Assembly: GCF_024298765.1 (NCBI RefSeq) | Contig: NZ_CP101210.1 | Source: Escherichia coli | GTDB lineage: Bacteria > Pseudomonadota > Gammaproteobacteria > Enterobacterales > Enterobacteriaceae | DNA length: 64,000 nucleotides | Direction: 5' to 3' (one strand) | Part shown: positions 13,842 through 50,434 of the stretch, piece after piece | How the letters are laid out: the number at the start of each line of letters is the position of its first letter | Position numbering within the stretch: the stretch's first letter is position 1 | Notes under the pieces: generated by a model | What the model saw: only the letters and a program-made list of their open reading frames with translations | Databases searched by the model: none | What the model was told of the DNA's origin: nothing | Made by a program: the position numbers and the translations under genes

Positions 13842-14886
13842 ATTTCAGCGCCCGACGCTGGCAGAAAATATCAGTATGCTCCGTAACGATTTATTCGCCA
13901 GGCTGGACGTCAGCGACACGCTCCGGCGCATGGATGAAGACGTGCGGGCAAAGGTGTATGCGGCGGCGCTGCATACGGTTTACGGTTACATCGATTATCT
14001 GGCAATGAACATGCTGCCTGATCTGTGCGATGAGTCCTGGCTGGCGCGACATGCTGCGATGAAACGGTGTCCGCGCAAGGGGGCCACGGCTGCCAGCGGG
14101 TATATGCGCTGGGAAGGTGTCAGCGATGGCCTGAAGGTGACCGCCGGGAGTGTTATTCAGCGCGATGACCTGGTTCAGTACACGGCAACTGCCGATGCAA
14201 CCAGCACTGGTGGTGTCCTGCGTGTGCCGATCACTTGCTCAACTACAGGCGCGGTCGGTAACGCTGACGACGGTACGGCATTAATCCTGGTCACACCGGT
14301 GAATGGTCTGCCGTCTTCCGGTGTGGCTGACACCCTGACAGGCGGATTTGATACTGAAGAGCTGGAAACGTGGCGCGCCCGCGTCATTGAGCGGTATTAC
14401 TGGACGCCTCAGGGCGGGGCTGACGGGGACTATGTCGTCTGGGCTAAAGAAGTGCCCGGCATTACCCGCGCATGGACATACCGACACTGGATGGGAACGG
14501 GGACTGTCGGTGTGATGATTGCCAGCAGTGACCTGATTAATCCCATTCCGGAAGAGTCAACGGAAACGGCGGCAAGACAACATATCGAGCCACTGGCCCC
14601 GGTGGCAGGCTCTGATTTGTATGTATTCAGGCCGGTGGCGCATAAAGTGGATTTTCATATCCGCGTGACGCCGGACACACCGGAAATACGGGCTGCCATC
14701 ACCGCCGAGTTGCGTTCGTTCCTGCTGCGTGATGGTTATCCGCAGGGAGAACTGAAGGTGTCACGTATCAGTGAAGCGATTTCCGGTGCGAACGGGGAAT
14801 ACAGCCATCAGTTGCTTGCACCGGCAGACAATATCGCCATTGCAAAAAATGAACTGGCGGTACTGGGGACGATTTCATGGACGTGA
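13828..14886 (+). CDS. Baseplate wedge protein, J-like (Mu gp47-like)
   Basis: 352 aa, with the size and position of baseplate J proteins. Confidence 0.7.
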
Positions 14887-15461
14887 CAAACGATGATTAC
14901 ATCCGTCTGTTGTCGGCACTGTTGCCCCCCGGTCCGGCGTGGTCAGCCAGCGATCCGGCGATTGCCGGTGCGGCACCGTCATTAACCCGCGTTCATCAGC
15001 GTGCGGATGCCCTGATGCGGGAGCTGGATCCGCGCACTACCACTGAACTGATAAACCGCTGGGAGCGTCTGTGCGGTCTGCCGGATGAATGTATTCCCGC
15101 AGGGACACAGACCCTTCGCCAGCGTCAGCAACGGCTGGATGCGAAGGTTAACCTGTCGGGTGGCATCAACGAGGATTTTTATCTTGCACAGCTTGCTGCC
15201 CTGGGCAGACCAGATGCCACCATCACGCGATACGACAAAAGCACGTTCACCTGCTCATCGGCCTGTACTGACGCTGTGAACGCGCCTGAATGGCGGTATT
15301 ACTGGCAGGTCAACATGCCAGCCGCCACCAACACCACCTGGATGACATGTGGCGATCCCTGTGATTCCGCACTGCGTATCTGGGGCGACACCGTTGTCGA
15401 GTGTGTGCTTAACAAACTCTGCCCGTCGCATACCTACGTAATTTTTAAATATCCGGAGTAA
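14877..15461 (+). CDS. Baseplate/tail protein (Mu gp48-like, P2 I-like)
   Basis: 194 aa. The N-terminal [16 protein letters not shown] motif is typical of this family, and the gene directly precedes the tail fibre. Confidence 0.65.
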
Positions 15462-15464
15462 TCC

Positions 15465-16115
15465 ATGCATCGTATAGACACGAAAACCGCGCAGAAGGAT
15501 AAGTTCGGCGCGGGTAAGAACGGTTTTACCCGTGGTAACCCCCAGACCGGCACGCCTGCCACCGATCTGGATGATGACTACTTTGACATGTTGCAGGAGG
15601 AGCTTTGCAGCGTTGTGGAGGCGTCCGGTGCCAGCCTGGAGAAGGGGCGGCACGACCAGCTGCTTACCGCGCTTCGTGCGCTGCTGTTAAGCCGCAAGAA
15701 TCCGTTTGGTGATATCAAATCGGATGGCACGGTGAAAACGGCTCTCGAAAACCTTGGTTTGGGAGAAGCGGCGAAAAGGGATGTGGGCACAGGAGAAAAT
15801 CAGATACCGGATATGTCAGCCTGGAAAAGAAATCCGAGTTCTAATCGCTGGAGAAAATTGCCTGATGGAACCATCATTCAAATGGGAATATCAGCATCAG
15901 GGCCATTAGGCTCACCTGTAAATATCACCCTGCCGATATCTTTCAGCAATACCAATTATTGTGTTGTTGCATCGTACGATAATGCACGGTCAGGTGTGTC
16001 AACAATGGTTAGTTTTGCAGCGTTACCTGTTTCACCATCGCAATTTTCCCTGATGTCATCTGTGACTGAGCAAGGAATAAATCCTTTTGCTTACTGGATT
16101 GCTTTTGGAGATTAA
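15465..16115 (+). CDS. Tail fibre protein as assembled in the current orientation: constant N-terminus 15465-15755 plus variable receptor-binding part
   Basis: 216 aa. The conserved fibre N-terminus is [47 protein letters not shown].... The invertase crossover site lies in-frame at 15742-15767. The distal part is visibly lower in GC. Confidence 0.75.
15742..15767 (+). promoter_or_regulatory. Left invertase crossover site (pix/gix-like), inside the tail fibre gene
   Basis: The site reads ctctcgaaaacc tt ggtttgggagaa. Its reverse complement, ttctcccaaacc aa ggttttcgagag, shares the first 14 nt with the right site. Confidence 0.8.
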
Positions 16116-16118
16116 TAA

Positions 16119-16538
16119 ATGGATAGATACTTCTATTCACAAAAAGAAAATGGTTTTTTTACCGATTTAAATAAAGCACCTTCAGATGCTGTTGAGATAA
16201 CCACGGATGAATGGCTGTTACTACTGGATGGTCAGGATAATGGCATGAAAATAGTCAGCAATCAGGAGGGATATCCGGTTTTGACAGAGCAACCACCTTT
16301 ATCAAAAGAAAACCTTATTGCATTGGCGGATTTGAAAAAAAGAAAACTTATTAATGAAGCCAACGAGCACATGAACAGCAGACAATGGCCAGGTAAAGCG
16401 GCGATTGGTCGCCTGAAAGGTGAGGAACTGGCGCAATATAATTTGTGGCTGGATTATCTGGACGCACTGGAACTGGTCGATACTTCCGGTGCGCCAGATA
16501 TTGAATGGCCTACGCCTCCGGCAGTTCAGGCCAGATGA
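16119..16538 (+). CDS. Tail fibre assembly chaperone (for the currently expressed fibre)
   Basis: 139 aa, directly after the fibre gene. It has the C-terminal motif LWLDYLDALELVDTSGAPDIEWP typical of Tfa/U proteins. Confidence 0.7.
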   Translation: MDRYFYSQKENGFFTDLNKAPSDAVEITTDEWLLLLDGQDNGMKIVSNQEGYPVLTEQPPLSKENLIALADLKKRKLINEANEHMNSRQWPGKAAIGRLKGEELAQYNLWLDYLDALELVDTSGAPDIEWPTPPAVQAR

Positions 16539-17115
16539 CGTCCGGCGCGGTGCTGGTATCTGTTGCCGTCACCGCGTCAATGTAATCCAGCACAGCGTTA
16601 AGTCGGGTGTTTTCTGTCTGCATCAGCTTCCGCCCGGCCTGCAATTTCAGTTGAATCAGACTAATGGAAGCCATTGCAGTATCAATCAGTGACTGACGCT
16701 GTGCTTCTGCCGCGTCTACTGCGGCGCTATGCTGTGCCTCAGTATCGGTCACCCATTTCTCACCATCCCATTTATCGTATGGCGTTAATGGGGCGATAGT
16801 GGTTGTATTTTCAGGGTAATCACCCGGAACTGTGATTTCTTTGGTATCTCCCGTTTCGGTACTATAGACAACTTCACCGCGATGGTCTGGCACATATTCC
16901 CATGAATTTAAATCTACAGAGCGACAGATTGCATAACCAGCTTTATGTGTACCTGGTGCATCCAAACAGGAACATGCCGGGATACCGACGCCGACAGCGA
17001 GATATTCAGTTGATGTAGAAATATATTCCCGCGTTTCACCATCATAATTATAAACGGTAATATCTCCCGCTTTTATGGCAATGAGTTCGCTATTTAATAC
17101 AGCTTTATTCATCAT
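16510..17115 (-). CDS. Tail fibre assembly chaperone (alternative, TfaE-like)
   Basis: 201 aa, resembling the e14/Mu-type Tfa as I remember it (MNKAVLNSELIAIKAGDITVYNYDGETREYI...). ATGA overlap with the alternative fibre segment. Confidence 0.75.
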   Translation of the reverse strand: MMNKAVLNSELIAIKAGDITVYNYDGETREYISTSTEYLAVGVGIPACSCLDAPGTHKAGYAICRSVDLNSWEYVPDHRGEVVYSTETGDTKEITVPGDYPENTTTIAPLTPYDKWDGEKWVTDTEAQHSAAVDAAEAQRQSLIDTAMASISLIQLKLQAGRKLMQTENTRLNAVLDYIDAVTATDTSTAPDVIWPELPEA

Positions 17116-17632
17116 GCGGCCCTCACAATATAATTAAAAGCGATGTTACGAGGACGAGTTTCTGTACCTACATTTTCACTAATTTCACCATAACGTTTAA
17201 CACTACGAGAGCTAATAGCTCGTAGTGAGGAAGGCACCTTAAGACCGGGTTCGTCCGTTTTAACTATTCCCCCGTCACCGTATGTAGCCAGTATTCCTGG
17301 GTTTACTCCTTCCCGTGCACTTCCTGCGGCGAGTCCGTCCCCTGTCCATAATTCCATATAGTGTGCATGGTCCAAAATTGTGTGTGGCTGCCAATTAAGC
17401 AAAGCGCGACCAGTATCAATCCCGCGACCGTCATCCCAGCCACGAATAAATTCACCGCGTAAATCAGGCAATTTATTGGTCGGGTAAGCCTTTGCCAGTT
17501 CCGGGTATTCTTCAGCAGAAAAAGCCGCACCGTTGCATTTCAGCCAGCCTGTTGGCGGAGTGGCGGAAGGCCACGGAACAGGCACACCAACGGGTAATGC
17601 CGAACCTTCTCCCAAACCAACGTTTATGAAAA
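17112..17632 (-). CDS. Alternative tail-fibre C-terminal segment, promoterless and startless in this orientation
   Basis: From the crossover site it reads GLGEGSALPVGVPVPWPSATPPTGWLKCNGAAFSAEEYPELAKAYP...LPDLRGEFIRGWDDGRG (collar-type fibre tip as in Mu S / e14 StfE). The frame is continuous with the constant part after inversion. The 5-prime extension of the ORF-track ORF to 17660 lies outside the segment and is not credible. Confidence 0.7.
17607..17632 (+). promoter_or_regulatory. Right invertase crossover site (pix/gix-like)
   Basis: The site reads ttctcccaaacc aa cgtttatgaaaa: two 12-bp half-sites around a 2-bp core, 55 nt upstream of the invertase ATG. Confidence 0.8.
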
Positions 17633-17686
17633 TGCAGAAATAACGAGCAAATGGCATCATTCCTGCTTTTGTCAGGGAGATCTACC

Positions 17687-18241
17687 ATGCTTATTGGCTA
17701 TGTACGTGTGTCAACAAATGACCAGAACACAGATCTACAGCGTAATGCGCTGAACTGTGCAGGATGCGAGCTGATTTTTGAAGACAAGATAAGCGGTACA
17801 AAGTCTGAAAGGCCGGGACTGAAAAAACTGCTCAGGACATTATCGGAAGGTGACACTCTGGTTGTCTGGAAGCTGGATCGGCTGGGGCGTAGTATGCGGC
17901 ATCTGGTCATTCTGGTTGAGGAGTTGCGCGAACGTGGCGTTAATTTTCGCAGCCTGACGGATGCTATTGATACCAGCACACCGATGGGGCGTTTTTTCTT
18001 TCATGTGATGGGTGCCCTAGCTGAAATGGAACGAGAACTGATTGTTGAACGAACAAAAGCTGGACTGGAAGCTGCTCGCGCACAGGGACGAATTGGTGGA
18101 CGTCGTCCCAAACTTACACCAGAACAATGGGCGCAGGCTGGGCGATTAATTGCATCAGGCGTTCCTCGCCAGAAGGTGGCGATCATCTATGATGTTGGTA
18201 TATCGACACTGTATAAGAAGTTTTCGGTCGGAGATAAATGA
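17687..18241 (+). CDS. pin: Serine DNA invertase of the Pin/Gin/Cin/Hin family
   Basis: 184 aa from ATG 17687 (GGGAGA upstream). MLIGYVRVSTNDQNTDLQRNAL... is nearly identical to e14 Pin as I remember it. The catalytic Ser is in VRVSTNDQ, and there is a C-terminal HTH. Confidence 0.9.
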   Translation: MLIGYVRVSTNDQNTDLQRNALNCAGCELIFEDKISGTKSERPGLKKLLRTLSEGDTLVVWKLDRLGRSMRHLVILVEELRERGVNFRSLTDAIDTSTPMGRFFFHVMGALAEMERELIVERTKAGLEAARAQGRIGGRRPKLTPEQWAQAGRLIASGVPRQKVAIIYDVGISTLYKKFSVGDK

Positions 18242-18279
18242 AACCGTAGCACGTCGTATGCAAGATCGTGCTGCGGTTT
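18241..18279. repeat. Hairpin module copy A (13-bp stem, 13-nt loop) between pin and the GIY-YIG gene; probable bidirectional terminator
   Basis: aaaccgtagcacg (18241-18253) pairs with cgtgctgcggttt (18267-18279): 12 Watson-Crick pairs plus one G.T. Homologous to copy B at 19264-19321. Confidence 0.6.
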
Positions 18280-18298: not shown

Positions 18299-19136
<838 letters not shown>

Positions 19137-19321: not shown

Positions 19322-19478
19322 TCTGTCATTAGTCGTATATAGAATGATTCTCTATGCCTAACAAAGCATCACCAGTGCTAGATTACGTTGTAGTCACTGT
19401 TTAAATATCCAGATAAAACATTTCCTTCTGGGTTGAATGAGTGATAAAGTTTCACCCATTAGACCCCTTGGAGGAATT

Positions 19479-20912
19479 ATGTCTGAATTTGAAGTGTTGG
19501 CACAGCATCTGCTGAAGGAAGCCGAGGCGGAAGAAAAGCTGCGACAGGAAAATGATAAAAAGCTTATCGAGAAAGTGCTGGAAATCTATGATCAGAAGTA
19601 TGTGGCTGAATTACTGAGAAAAGTCGGAAAAAATGAGTGGAGCCGTGAAACCATTAACCGCTGGATTAATGGCAAGTGTTTACCAAAATCGTTGACTTCA
19701 GTAGAAGAGTCTCTTCTGCGTAAGATGCTACCAGAACCACCTGCAAACCATCCGGAATATGCTTTCCGCTTCATTGACTTATTTGCTGGAATTGGAGGGA
19801 TACGGAAAGGTTTTGAGGCCATTGGAGGCCAGTGTGTTTTTACCAGTGAATGGAATAAAGATGCTGTGCGTACATACAAGGCCAACTGGTTTAACGATGA
19901 ACAGGTGCATAAATTCAATCTCGATATTCGGGAAGTCACGCTGAGTGATAAAACCGATGTATTGGAAACGGATGCTTATGCATATATTGATGAGCATGTG
20001 CCGGATCATGATGTGCTTCTTGCGGGGTTCCCGTGCCAGCCATTTAGCCTTGCTGGTGTTAGTAAGAAAAACTCACTTGGTCGTGCGCATGGTTTTGAAT
20101 GTGAAGCACAAGGAACACTTTTTTTTGACGTGGCACGTATTATACGAGCAAAAAAACCGGCAATTTTTGTGCTGGAAAATGTCAAAAATCTGAAGAGCCA
20201 TGATAAGGGTAAAACTTTCAAAGTCATTATGGAGACCCTTGACGAGCTGGGCTACGAAGTTGCCGATGCTGCAGAAATGGGAAAAAACGATCCAAAGATT
20301 ATCGATGGGAAGCATTTTTTGCCTCAGCATCGTGAACGCATTGTTCTGGTCGGATTTAGACGAGATCTGAATATTCACAAGGGGTTTACCTTGCGTGATA
20401 TCAGTCGTTTTTATCCGGAACACCGCCCATCATTTGGTGAATTGCTGGAGCCTGTAGTCGACAGTAAATATATACTTACGCCAAAACTATGGGAGTACCT
20501 TTATAACTACGCCAAAAAGCATGCAGCCAAGGGGAATGGTTTTGGCTTTGGGTTGGTCAATCCTGAGAATAAGGAAAGCATTGCACGCACACTTTCTGCC
20601 AGATATCACAAAGACGGATCAGAAATTCTTATTGATCGTGGTTGGGATATGGCAACGGGAGAGGCTGACTTTATGAATGAGAGTAATCAGGCTCGTCGAC
20701 CACGCAGGCTGACTCCCCGAGAGTGCGCACGCCTTATGGGATTTGAAAAACCTGGAGGGAAACCATTCCGTATTCCGGTTTCAGATACTCAGTCATATCG
20801 GCAGTTCGGTAACTCAGTTGTGGTGCCAGTATTTGAAGCTGTTGCCAGACTTCTGGAACCCTATATCCTCAAAGCTGTTTCTGCTGATGCTGGTAAGACT
20901 GGGCAGCCTTGA
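19479..20912 (+). CDS. ecoRIIM: DNA (cytosine-5) methyltransferase, EcoRII/Dcm type (CCWGG)
   Basis: 477 aa from ATG 19479 (GGAGG upstream). Motifs [15 protein letters not shown] (I), GFPCQPFS (IV), ENVKNL (VI) and QFGNSVVVP (X) are present. Near-colinear with M.EcoRII and K-12 Dcm as I remember them. Confidence 0.9.
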
Positions 20913-20946: not shown

Positions 20947-22155
20947 CTATGATAGTTCAGCGTAAAGCTCTATCAGCTCAGTAATGAATGCTCCGAGCGT
21001 TATTAATTCTTCTCTAACTGCTTCTGGGTATTTTTTATGTAAAGTTGATGGTACAACGAGTCTGACACCCGCATCTTTCATTTCTCGGTATTGTGCTGAA
21101 GAAACACCTTCTTGCAGTGTAAATAAATGTACCTGATGGATTTTATCTGCTTCATTCAGTATCTGACGCCAGCGATCTTTGCAGGTGGTCTTTACTGCCA
21201 GCATACGTAAGTTTTCTACAGGAAATTCAACGTTATGATATGCCTCTGCTGAAGGAAACAGGAAATCTGGTTTTTTATTACCTTCAGTAACTGCCTGAGT
21301 GGAGAAATGCCGTAGTCCGTGCTCGATAAAAAGCTTCTCTAGGTGAAGTTCAAGTGATTTGCCTGCCCTTGATTTACGTCGATTACTGACAGAGTTGGCT
21401 AATGCAATAAACTCATCTACAGAATCGAATCCTTTCTTAATAATATCAAGAACATGTAATTCCTCGACGAGTAGAAAAATATCATACTCGACACGCCGAC
21501 GGTCAATCAGTTGCTCATCTGGATCCTTGGAGTTTTTAGCATAATGGCCAGCAGCATATTGAATAATTTCGTTTCCAGAAGGAAAACGCTTCTTCCAGTC
21601 TTCAGGAATAACATATTTATGATTTACTGGAGTTTGCTGAAGAGACAATCCGCCCAAAATTTGTCCGGCAGGGCCGGAAATTAGGGTTCCAGGTATGATT
21701 TCGCCAATAGCAGACTCGATGATATCCTCTTCATCGGGATTGACGCAGACCCATATATCTACCTCGGAACAGTCAGTGTTCTGTTCGTTTAACCTGAAAG
21801 CAAGAATTGTGAGGGCTCCTGTATTTTCAGGGTTCTGTAATGGACTTCCTCTCCCCCAGCGCGTAATTCTTTTTTCGTTTCGGGTCTTACCAAAATAACG
21901 GTTGTTGTAATAAATTGCGCGTGCTTGGGTATCAGGGCAATCATGGGATGATACATGCGCAGTAAGGAAGACTGAAGGGTTCAGTTCGCGAGTATGATTG
22001 ATAGATGGAAAAAGCTTTTCAACGATATTTGAGGGGATATAAAGTCCGACCTGATGGCCACCTGTTGCGCCTGTGTCGTTTGCAGAAAGGCGTTTGATGT
22101 AGATAAAGTAATTCCCGCTTGCGATATCAAGCAGCCAGTTATGAAAAACCGACAT
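20947..22155 (-). CDS. ecoRIIR: Type IIE restriction endonuclease EcoRII
   Basis: Lies in ORF 20947..22161. I prefer the second ATG (22155, MSVFHNWLL...), which has AAGGGA correctly spaced. The sequence follows remembered R.EcoRII almost throughout: N-terminal effector domain YIKRLSANDTGATGGHQVGLYIP and the C-terminal PD-(D/E)XK part. Confidence 0.9.
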   Translation of the reverse strand: MSVFHNWLLDIASGNYFIYIKRLSANDTGATGGHQVGLYIPSNIVEKLFPSINHTRELNPSVFLTAHVSSHDCPDTQARAIYYNNRYFGKTRNEKRITRWGRGSPLQNPENTGALTILAFRLNEQNTDCSEVDIWVCVNPDEEDIIESAIGEIIPGTLISGPAGQILGGLSLQQTPVNHKYVIPEDWKKRFPSGNEIIQYAAGHYAKNSKDPDEQLIDRRRVEYDIFLLVEELHVLDIIKKGFDSVDEFIALANSVSNRRKSRAGKSLELHLEKLFIEHGLRHFSTQAVTEGNKKPDFLFPSAEAYHNVEFPVENLRMLAVKTTCKDRWRQILNEADKIHQVHLFTLQEGVSSAQYREMKDAGVRLVVPSTLHKKYPEAVREELITLGAFITELIELYAELS

Positions 22156-22230
22156 ATACATCCCTTTGTTAACATACAGTCAGGGTTAACATTTTTCCAT
22201 AGTTATAGATAAGCGGCTAGGAACTTAAGG

Positions 22231-22389: not shown

Positions 22390-22752
22390 TGGTGGAGCTG
22401 GCGGGAGTTGAACCCGCGTCCGAAATTCCTACATCCTCGGTACTACATGCTTAGTCAGTCTTTACATTCGCTTGCCAGCTGCGGACGGACACGCCACTAA
22501 CAAACTAGCCTGATTAAGTTTTAACGCTTCAACCCCAGGCAGGGCTTCCACGCGATCTCTTTTGGGTTTGACCTCTCTTGATCCCCGTCCTAAGAGCGGA
22601 GGCTAGGGAGAGAGGGCTCTAAGCAGGTTATTAAGCTGCTAAAGCGTAGTTTTCGTCGTTTGCGACTATTTTTTGCGGCTTTTTACGAGGCCAACCGCCC
22701 CTCGGCATGCACCTTGGGTTTCGCAAATCCCGTCGAATCCAGAATCAGCCCC
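22390..22752 (-). ncRNA. ssrA: tmRNA (SsrA / 10Sa RNA), complete, 363 nt
   Basis: The reverse complement starts GGGGCTGATTCTGGATTCGACGGGATTTGCG and ends GGGTTCAACTCCCGCCAGCTCCACCA. The tag reading frame at 22631-22663 encodes ANDENYALAA followed by a stop. Confidence 0.98.
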
Positions 22753-50239: not shown

Positions 50240-50316
<77 letters not shown>

Positions 50317-50358
50317 AATTTGCACGGCAAATTTGAAGAGGTTTTAACTACATGTTAT

Positions 50359-50434
50359 GGGGCTATAGCTCAGCTGGGAGAGCGCCTGCTTTGCACGCAG
50401 GAGGTCTGCGGTTCGATCCCGCATAGCTCCACCA
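50359..50434 (+). tRNA. tRNA-Ala (anticodon TGC)
   Basis: ggggctatagctcagctgggagagcgcctgcttTGCacgcaggaggtctgcggttcgatcccgcatagctccacca. Confidence 0.97.

Follow-up and report, generated by a model that had tools for sequence, protein, structure and literature searches.

A tail-fibre cassette bounded by inverted crossover sites lies within a prophage on the Escherichia coli contig NZ_CP101210.1 (assembly GCF_024298765.1). The DNA analysed is a 64-kb stretch of this contig (64,000 nucleotides, hereafter the window), and positions are counted from its first base. Between two 26-bp crossover sites stand four genes, arranged as two convergent pairs that each comprise a fibre tip and its assembly chaperone. 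A constant fibre N-terminus is read into this segment from the left, and pin, the gene of a serine DNA invertase, follows the right site (Table 1). The region is very likely an allele of the P segment of prophage e14, that is, a Fis- and enhancer-dependent switch of the Hin/Gin/Cin/Pin class of serine invertases, carried here by an e14-like prophage at ssrA. The system itself is already known, and this allele is already annotated (as pinE, tfaE, stfP and gp53-like) in many public genomes.

Crossover sites, fibre modules and invertase

In both crossover sites a 2-bp core separates two 12-bp half-sites. The sites lie in inverted orientation, and their cores match. The half-site TTCTCCCAAACC is identical in the two and is found on that side of the core which faces the segment (15756-15767 and 17607-17618). 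A preliminary description of the locus had reported the inverted 26-bp sites, their AA/TT cores and a shared half-site, all of which stand; it had called that half-site the outer one, whereas it is the inner. A repeat finder independently recovered an inverted repeat of 20 nt at 15749-15768 and 17606-17625, with 95% complementarity between its arms. The core motif AAACCWWSGTTT occurs at only two places in the 64-kb window, both of them the crossover sites, against 0.05 occurrences expected from shuffled sequences. For a palindromised 26-bp site with up to three mismatches, the number expected by chance is 0.00. Motif scans of the window found no further crossover sites of the kind used in Min or shufflon-type multi-inversion. 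A multi-inversion system of that type was rejected, as the window holds only the two sites.

The TT of the left core supplies the second and third positions of codon 97 (Leu) of the fibre gene. In the present, short orientation, the fibre open reading frame (ORF) spans 15465-16115 and encodes 216 amino acids (aa). When the segment is inverted in silico, the frame stays open and the fibre has exactly 265 aa; it reads ...ENLGLGE-GSALPVGVPVPWP... across the junction. The preliminary description had proposed the 97 constant codons, the 216-aa product and an alternative fibre of ~265 aa with a collar tip, and each of these holds. The two fibres share 101 residues rather than 97, because the inner half-site encodes a common G-L-G-E. 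The constant part comes after genes for a baseplate J-like and a Mu gp48-like (YmfQ) protein; presumably it anchors the fibre on the baseplate. Its similarity to the N-terminus of the Mu fibre S is weak (expectation value, E, 0.04-0.06).

The two tips belong to different domain classes, and each has its own chaperone, as the preliminary description had claimed. A profile search of the expressed tip, which the preliminary description had recommended, identifies the Pfam domain Gp53-like_C (PF21882, E 5e-13) over fibre residues 131-215. The tip that is not joined at present contains the Pfam Collar domain (PF07484, E 1e-15), and its sequence matches in the PDB include the tip of T4 gp37 (2xgf, E 6e-18) and short tail fibres. 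Both chaperones are Caudo_TAP proteins (Table 1). Their convergent genes, tfaA and tfaB, overlap by 29 bp (16510-16538). They also share an 18-nt inverted repeat (83%; 16448-16465 and 16574-16591), which reflects the homology of their C-terminal ends (WLDYLDAL and VLDYIDAV) and is a possible substrate for homologous, not site-specific, inversion.

The guanine-plus-cytosine (GC) content is 0.43 in tip A and 0.37 in the N-terminal part of TfaA. It is 0.47-0.55 in tip B and 0.48 in TfaB, with 0.35-0.42 in the latter's N-terminal part. The expressed pair had been described as much more AT-rich than the silent one; the contrast is real but modest, and the low values in TfaB show that it is not specific to the expressed pair. 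The further proposal that the low GC content marks a recent modular acquisition is not supported. The corresponding K-12 modules are as AT-rich as those of the window (0.46 in the StfP tip, 0.39 in the N-terminal part of TfaP), 144 of 5,426 complete E. coli genomes contain the tip A/TfaA module with an identity of 95-100%, and the cassette is also found in P2-like phages. Recent acquisition of an AT-rich tip was therefore rejected, low GC content being a property of the module class. Rarity of the distal insert of tip B was likewise rejected: an initial comparison matched strain KSC1031 only, and the insert was then found in 193 of the 5,426 genomes, with some copies on plasmids.

The invertase ORF is full length. 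Its product begins MLIGYVRVS(9)TNDQ, which includes the catalytic Ser9, and its best match in the PDB is Gin (3uj3, E 3e-93), aligned over the full length. Pin is identical to K-12 PinE at 173 of 184 positions (94%), as the preliminary description had anticipated in calling it close to the e14 enzyme, and to Mu Gin at 141 of 184 (77%). It carries K46, K47 and R50, whose numbers are shifted by one relative to those of Hin, and a Q-A-G-R-L stretch that aligns with the Q-A-G-R-L of Gin. Fis-dependent invertases conserve Hin K47, K/R48, K/R51, Q151, R154 and L155, which contact Fis and the enhancer (PMC3798978); the basic residues of Pin and its Q-x-x-R-L patch fall at these positions.

A putative recombinational enhancer, in the form of two Fis-consensus sites, lies within the 5′ end of pin. 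These two matches are exactly 48 bp apart, and the centre of the proximal one is 96.5 bp from the right core. The Fis sites of known invertase enhancers have a spacing of 48 bp. In the Hin system, about 100 bp separate the crossover site from the proximal Fis site (PMC3798978). In K-12 pinE, Mu gin, phage pro483, CX07 and JE86 this pair recurs at identical positions. A strict Fis pattern recovers one site only, and the published degenerate consensus recovers the pair. A Fis-consensus pair of this kind appeared in 45 of 5,000 shuffled sequences.

Table 1. Positions, in the window, of the cassette and its neighbours, followed by the stretches compared with K-12 e14
Feature	Positions	Strand	Description
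Fibre constant N-terminal part	15465-15755	+	Codons 1-97; outside segment; ORF
Left 26-bp crossover site	15742-15767		CTCTCGAAAACC-TT-GGTTTGGGAGAA; core TT 15754-15755
Invertible segment	15754-17620		1,867 bp, core to core inclusive; in-silico inversion
Tip A, now joined to constant part	15756-16115	+	G-L-G-E, then gp53-like C-terminal receptor-binding domain
TfaA, tip A assembly chaperone	16119-16538	+	139 aa; Pfam Caudo_TAP, E 3e-25
TfaB, tip B chaperone	16510-17115	-	201 aa; Pfam Caudo_TAP, E 3e-30
Tip B, now unjoined	17112-17618	-	G-L-G-E, tail-collar domain, variable distal insert, conserved C-terminus ...ETRPRNIAFNYIVRAA
Right 26-bp crossover site	17607-17632		TTCTCCCAAACC-AA-CGTTTATGAAAA; core AA 17619-17620
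Short leader	17633-17660	-	ATG at 17660; MMPFARYFCIFINV; outside segment
pin, serine DNA invertase	17687-18241	+	184 aa; Pfam Resolvase, E 6e-52, and HTH_7, E 8e-13
Putative recombinational enhancer	17709-17771		Fis-consensus sites 17709-17723 and 17757-17771; within pin 5′ end
LEM-3-like GIY-YIG nuclease-domain gene	18299-19072	-	Between pin and ssrA
Dcm-type C5 methyltransferase	19437-20912	+	EcoRII-type N-domain; between pin and ssrA
EcoRII-family endonuclease	20947-22161	-	Between pin and ssrA
jayE-ymfQ-constant part vs K-12	14099-15776		DNA 96%
tfaP C-part and tfaE vs K-12	16371-17164		DNA 88%
stfE collar and pinE vs K-12	17403-18242		DNA 92%
Fibre residues 1-101 vs K-12 StfP (YcfK)			Protein, one difference
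TfaB vs K-12 TfaE			Protein, 91%
Tip B collar part vs K-12 StfE			Protein, identical

Orientation in public genomes and relation to e14

Both orientations of the cassette are present in public genomes. Among the 5,426 complete E. coli genomes, counting collinear matches over at least 80% of the cassette, 22 carry it as in the window and 28 match the in-silico inverted sequence. Two near-isogenic pairs, CX07 with CX15 and JE86-ST05 with JE86-ST02, are identical over ~8.8 kb outside the segment and exact reverse complements of one another inside it, and the reverse-complemented stretch has the first T of the left core as its start. CX07 and CX15 have equal genome lengths and equal cassette coordinates, and the JE86 pair follows the same pattern. 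A 95-nt stretch over the right site, the region upstream of pin and the start of pin is 100% identical between the window and CX07. The left site has the same sequence in K-12 e14, CX07, JE86, M37H, UTAK-14, ACN002 and SKA5, and the right site in K-12 e14 and CX07.

Among complete genomes, KSC1031 alone (L002 6066-8238) is collinear over the whole cassette at 98.4%. There are 20 gap positions where it is aligned to the window, and the annotation treats stfP, tfa, tfaE and the tail-protein gene as partial or frameshifted pseudogenes, probably because of assembly indels rather than biology. More broadly, 3,781 of the 5,426 genomes have matches to parts of the cassette, at a median of 2 and a maximum of 11 places per genome. 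Many strains therefore hold multiple Pin-type sites and invertases in one chromosome, which gives scope for action in trans and possibly for recombination between elements.

The K-12 MG1655 e14 order jayE-ymfQ-ycfK(stfP)-tfaP-tfaE-stfE-pinE is matched gene for gene, orientation included, and both 26-bp sites equal those of e14 base for base (K-12 L001 12779-12804 and 14606-14631). The 29-bp convergent overlap of the tfa genes and the leader ORF adjoining pin are also common to the two. High identity extends over most of the locus, as listed in the last rows of Table 1. Three stretches are unlike K-12: tip A together with its chaperone's N-domain (15777-16370) and, in tip B, the distal insert (17165-17402). 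TfaA is 53% identical to K-12 TfaP, with a conserved C-terminal and a divergent N-terminal part, and past residue ~104 tip A resembles the K-12 StfP tip only weakly. The K-12 StfP tip, too, belongs to the gp53-like class (PMC12529663). The differing stretches are allelic modules of the same domain classes as those of K-12. The segment is 38 bp longer than its K-12 counterpart (1,835 versus 1,797 bp between 16-bp repeats).

The e14 of K-12 is a 15-kb remnant at icd with mcrA downstream of pinE, whereas the prophage described here appears complete and lies at ssrA, with a GIY-YIG gene and EcoRII-type restriction-modification genes following pin in place of mcrA. Because of this different site and the different genes after pin, the element is an e14-family relative and not e14 itself. 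The e14 segment is present in both orientations within MG1655 cultures (PMC4272514) and is inverted both by PinE and by PinQ of prophage Qin (PMC12529663). The latter case documents trans-action among Pin-type invertases. The preliminary description had cast the element as one likely to cross-talk with an e14 P segment, should the strain carry one; this needs another framing, the element being itself an e14-family P segment by gene order, sites and Pin identity.

The same logic is found in the G segment of Mu, inverted by Gin, and the C segment of P1, inverted by Cin. A constant N-terminus (Sc) is joined to alternative tips (Sv or S′v), each with its own chaperone (U or U′), and in both phages the invertase gene stands beside the right site and has the enhancer inside it. 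Mu differs in the sequences of its crossover sites and tips, in a much longer constant part and in the length of its G segment (~3 kb). The Hin/hix system of Salmonella employs the same recombinase subclass and the invertasome mechanism, dependent on Fis and an enhancer, that is proposed here; Hin inverts a promoter rather than coding 3′ ends, and no fibre genes are involved.

P2-like phages (Peduovirus) such as Escherichia phage pro483 contain the same cassette at 84-93% DNA homology. The matches are to pro483, to a P2-like O157:H43 prophage and to peduoviruses of Klebsiella and Salmonella. In these phages homology begins at query positions 344-350, which correspond to the left crossover site, and continues through the tips, chaperones and invertase. 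Since homology begins at the left site, the cassette is shared between different tail backbones. The right site of pro483 is identical to that of the window, the outer half of its left site differs (TTCTCGCATACC), and its invertase is identical at 161 of 184 positions. The constant part of pro483 is the N-terminus of a P2 H-type fibre, ~270 aa long, on a P2 baseplate. SfIV-type phages match the constant part, tip and tfa only (query positions 1-1625) and have no invertase.

Proposed mechanism and alternative explanations

In the proposed mechanism, which is established for this family of invertases, Pin dimers would bind both 26-bp sites and, together with Fis on the enhancer in the 5′ end of pin, would form an invertasome on supercoiled DNA. 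Pin would then make double-strand cuts at the 2-bp cores, and subunit rotation and strand exchange would flip the 1,867-bp segment. The late operon would transcribe the constant 97 codons in either orientation, so that orientation would choose between a 216-aa fibre, made with tip A and TfaA, and a 265-aa fibre, made with tip B and TfaB. A population of lysogens would consequently release virions with two receptor or adsorption specificities. We infer activity in this strain, on the strength of the relatives described above, together with dependence on Fis and a consequence for host range. The switch is intact and very probably active.

Several points weigh against this reading. Activity is deduced from relatives of the element. 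Pin differs from the CX07 Pin by 8 substitutions and from K-12 PinE by 11, and their effect is judged from the sequence. The Fis sites match a degenerate consensus in conserved coding DNA, where conservation of the sites is confounded with that of the protein. Finally, the window begins within the terminase gene, so that the prophage can be called complete-looking but not complete.

It is unlikely that the segment serves mainly as an invertase-activated anti-phage device of the host, as has been reported for K-12 e14. The case for such a role starts from the leader, which reads into whichever tip faces pin. It forms a 182-aa ORF in the present orientation (into 17112-17632), and inversion would fuse it to tip A in an ORF of 133 aa, giving predicted fusion products in both states. 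The leader is conserved in K-12, where its counterpart is that of stfE/StfE2, and K-12 StfE2, which joins the leader to a gp53-like tip, is reported to block adsorption of T2 (Kirigo et al., PMC12529663). A similar 133-aa protein would be the blocking agent here. The weak similarity of tip A to the K-12 StfP tip past residue ~104 means, however, that no spectrum can be transferred, and the sigma-70 scan found no promoter for the leader ORF. Moreover, the cassette resides in an apparently complete phage, for which a host-range role is simpler, although the two roles are not mutually exclusive. A defence role for the leader ORF in this strain is possible but unsupported, because no promoter was detected and the tip allele differs from that of K-12.

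A specific form of this idea, to which we give only a slim chance, is that in the flipped state the 133-aa product would act as a free receptor-binding domain that coats a receptor on the host surface and excludes unrelated phages. Its spectrum of exclusion would differ from that of K-12 because the tip allele differs. If the idea were true, the many tip alleles of the cassette in E. coli would represent a diversified, invertase-gated repertoire for superinfection exclusion.

Somewhat less likely still is a switch that is structurally intact but frozen, with Pin unexpressed or inactivated by substitution and only the 216-aa gp53-like fibre being made. A simple sigma-70 pattern scan upstream of pin showed no promoter-like site with at least 9 of 12 matches, as a frozen switch would have it; for pin and the leader ORF alike, the promoter scan gave nothing above the shuffle background and is uninformative. 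The 8-11 residue differences from the Pins of flipping elements point the same way, as does the existence of locked relatives that lack an invertase, such as SfIV. Against this, the sites, the region upstream of pin and the putative enhancer are identical to those of CX07, whose clone-mates are flipped. The pin gene is full length, Ser9 and the residues aligned to Gin are conserved, and the substitutions are conservative and fall at no position known for catalysis or Fis contact. Pin-type invertases encoded elsewhere in the same cell can, in addition, act in trans (PMC12529663).

The last explanation, that the inverted repeats reflect chance or the homology of facing fibre genes without site-specific recombination, could draw on the homology-derived repeat that the two tfa genes do share, but is effectively refuted by the identity of the sites to the experimentally inverted sites of e14 (PMC12529663) and by the isogenic pairs that differ by an inversion starting exactly at the core. 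The chance expectation (0.00-0.05) and the 12-2-12 architecture also speak against it.

Prophage context and significance

The cassette sits in an intact-looking, e14-like myovirus prophage that is integrated at ssrA; the head is of the HK97 type and the contractile tail of the Mu type. Upstream of the cassette lie genes for a terminase nuclease domain, a portal, an S78 protease, an HK97-type capsid, a sheath, a tape measure, a protein for DNA circularisation, a hub like Mu gpP, gp46, baseplate J and a Mu gp48/YmfQ-like protein. The gene ssrA, which encodes the transfer-messenger RNA (22390-22752, minus strand), adjoins the end of the prophage, and ordinary E. coli chromosome lies beyond it. 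Because ssrA directly abuts the prophage end, the prophage is integrated there and not at icd like e14. The ssrA arrangement recurs in KSC1031 and M37H.

M37H is the closest complete genome (99.4% identical over 23 kb). Its prophage at ssrA is complete at ~38.7 kb and includes e14-type ymfK/ymfT/ymfL, Q and a lysis cassette, with the integrase at the far end. Since the M37H prophage is complete, the element is probably a full-length relative of the e14 remnant. The M37H prophage also encodes a Kiwa anti-phage system (KwaA/KwaB) between the lysis cassette and Q (L013 28316-29727), in a region that corresponds to DNA upstream of the start of the window.

Between pin and ssrA, the methyltransferase and endonuclease genes constitute a prophage-borne restriction-modification system of the CCWGG type, at a spot equivalent to that of mcrA in K-12 e14. 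The right two-thirds of the window are ordinary E. coli chromosome, where tRNA-Ile(GAT) and tRNA-Ala(TGC) at 50240-50434 form the spacer of a ribosomal RNA operon.

Which orientation was captured determines how this locus is assembled and annotated, including a "pseudogene" stfE and partial tail proteins. The near-isogenic pairs constitute clean genomic evidence that the cassette flips in nature, and lysates of the induced prophage would be a mixture of two fibre types. Beyond annotation the locus otherwise matters little, except that it shows the form which the K-12 e14 remnant takes in an intact relative, a prophage of ~39 kb.

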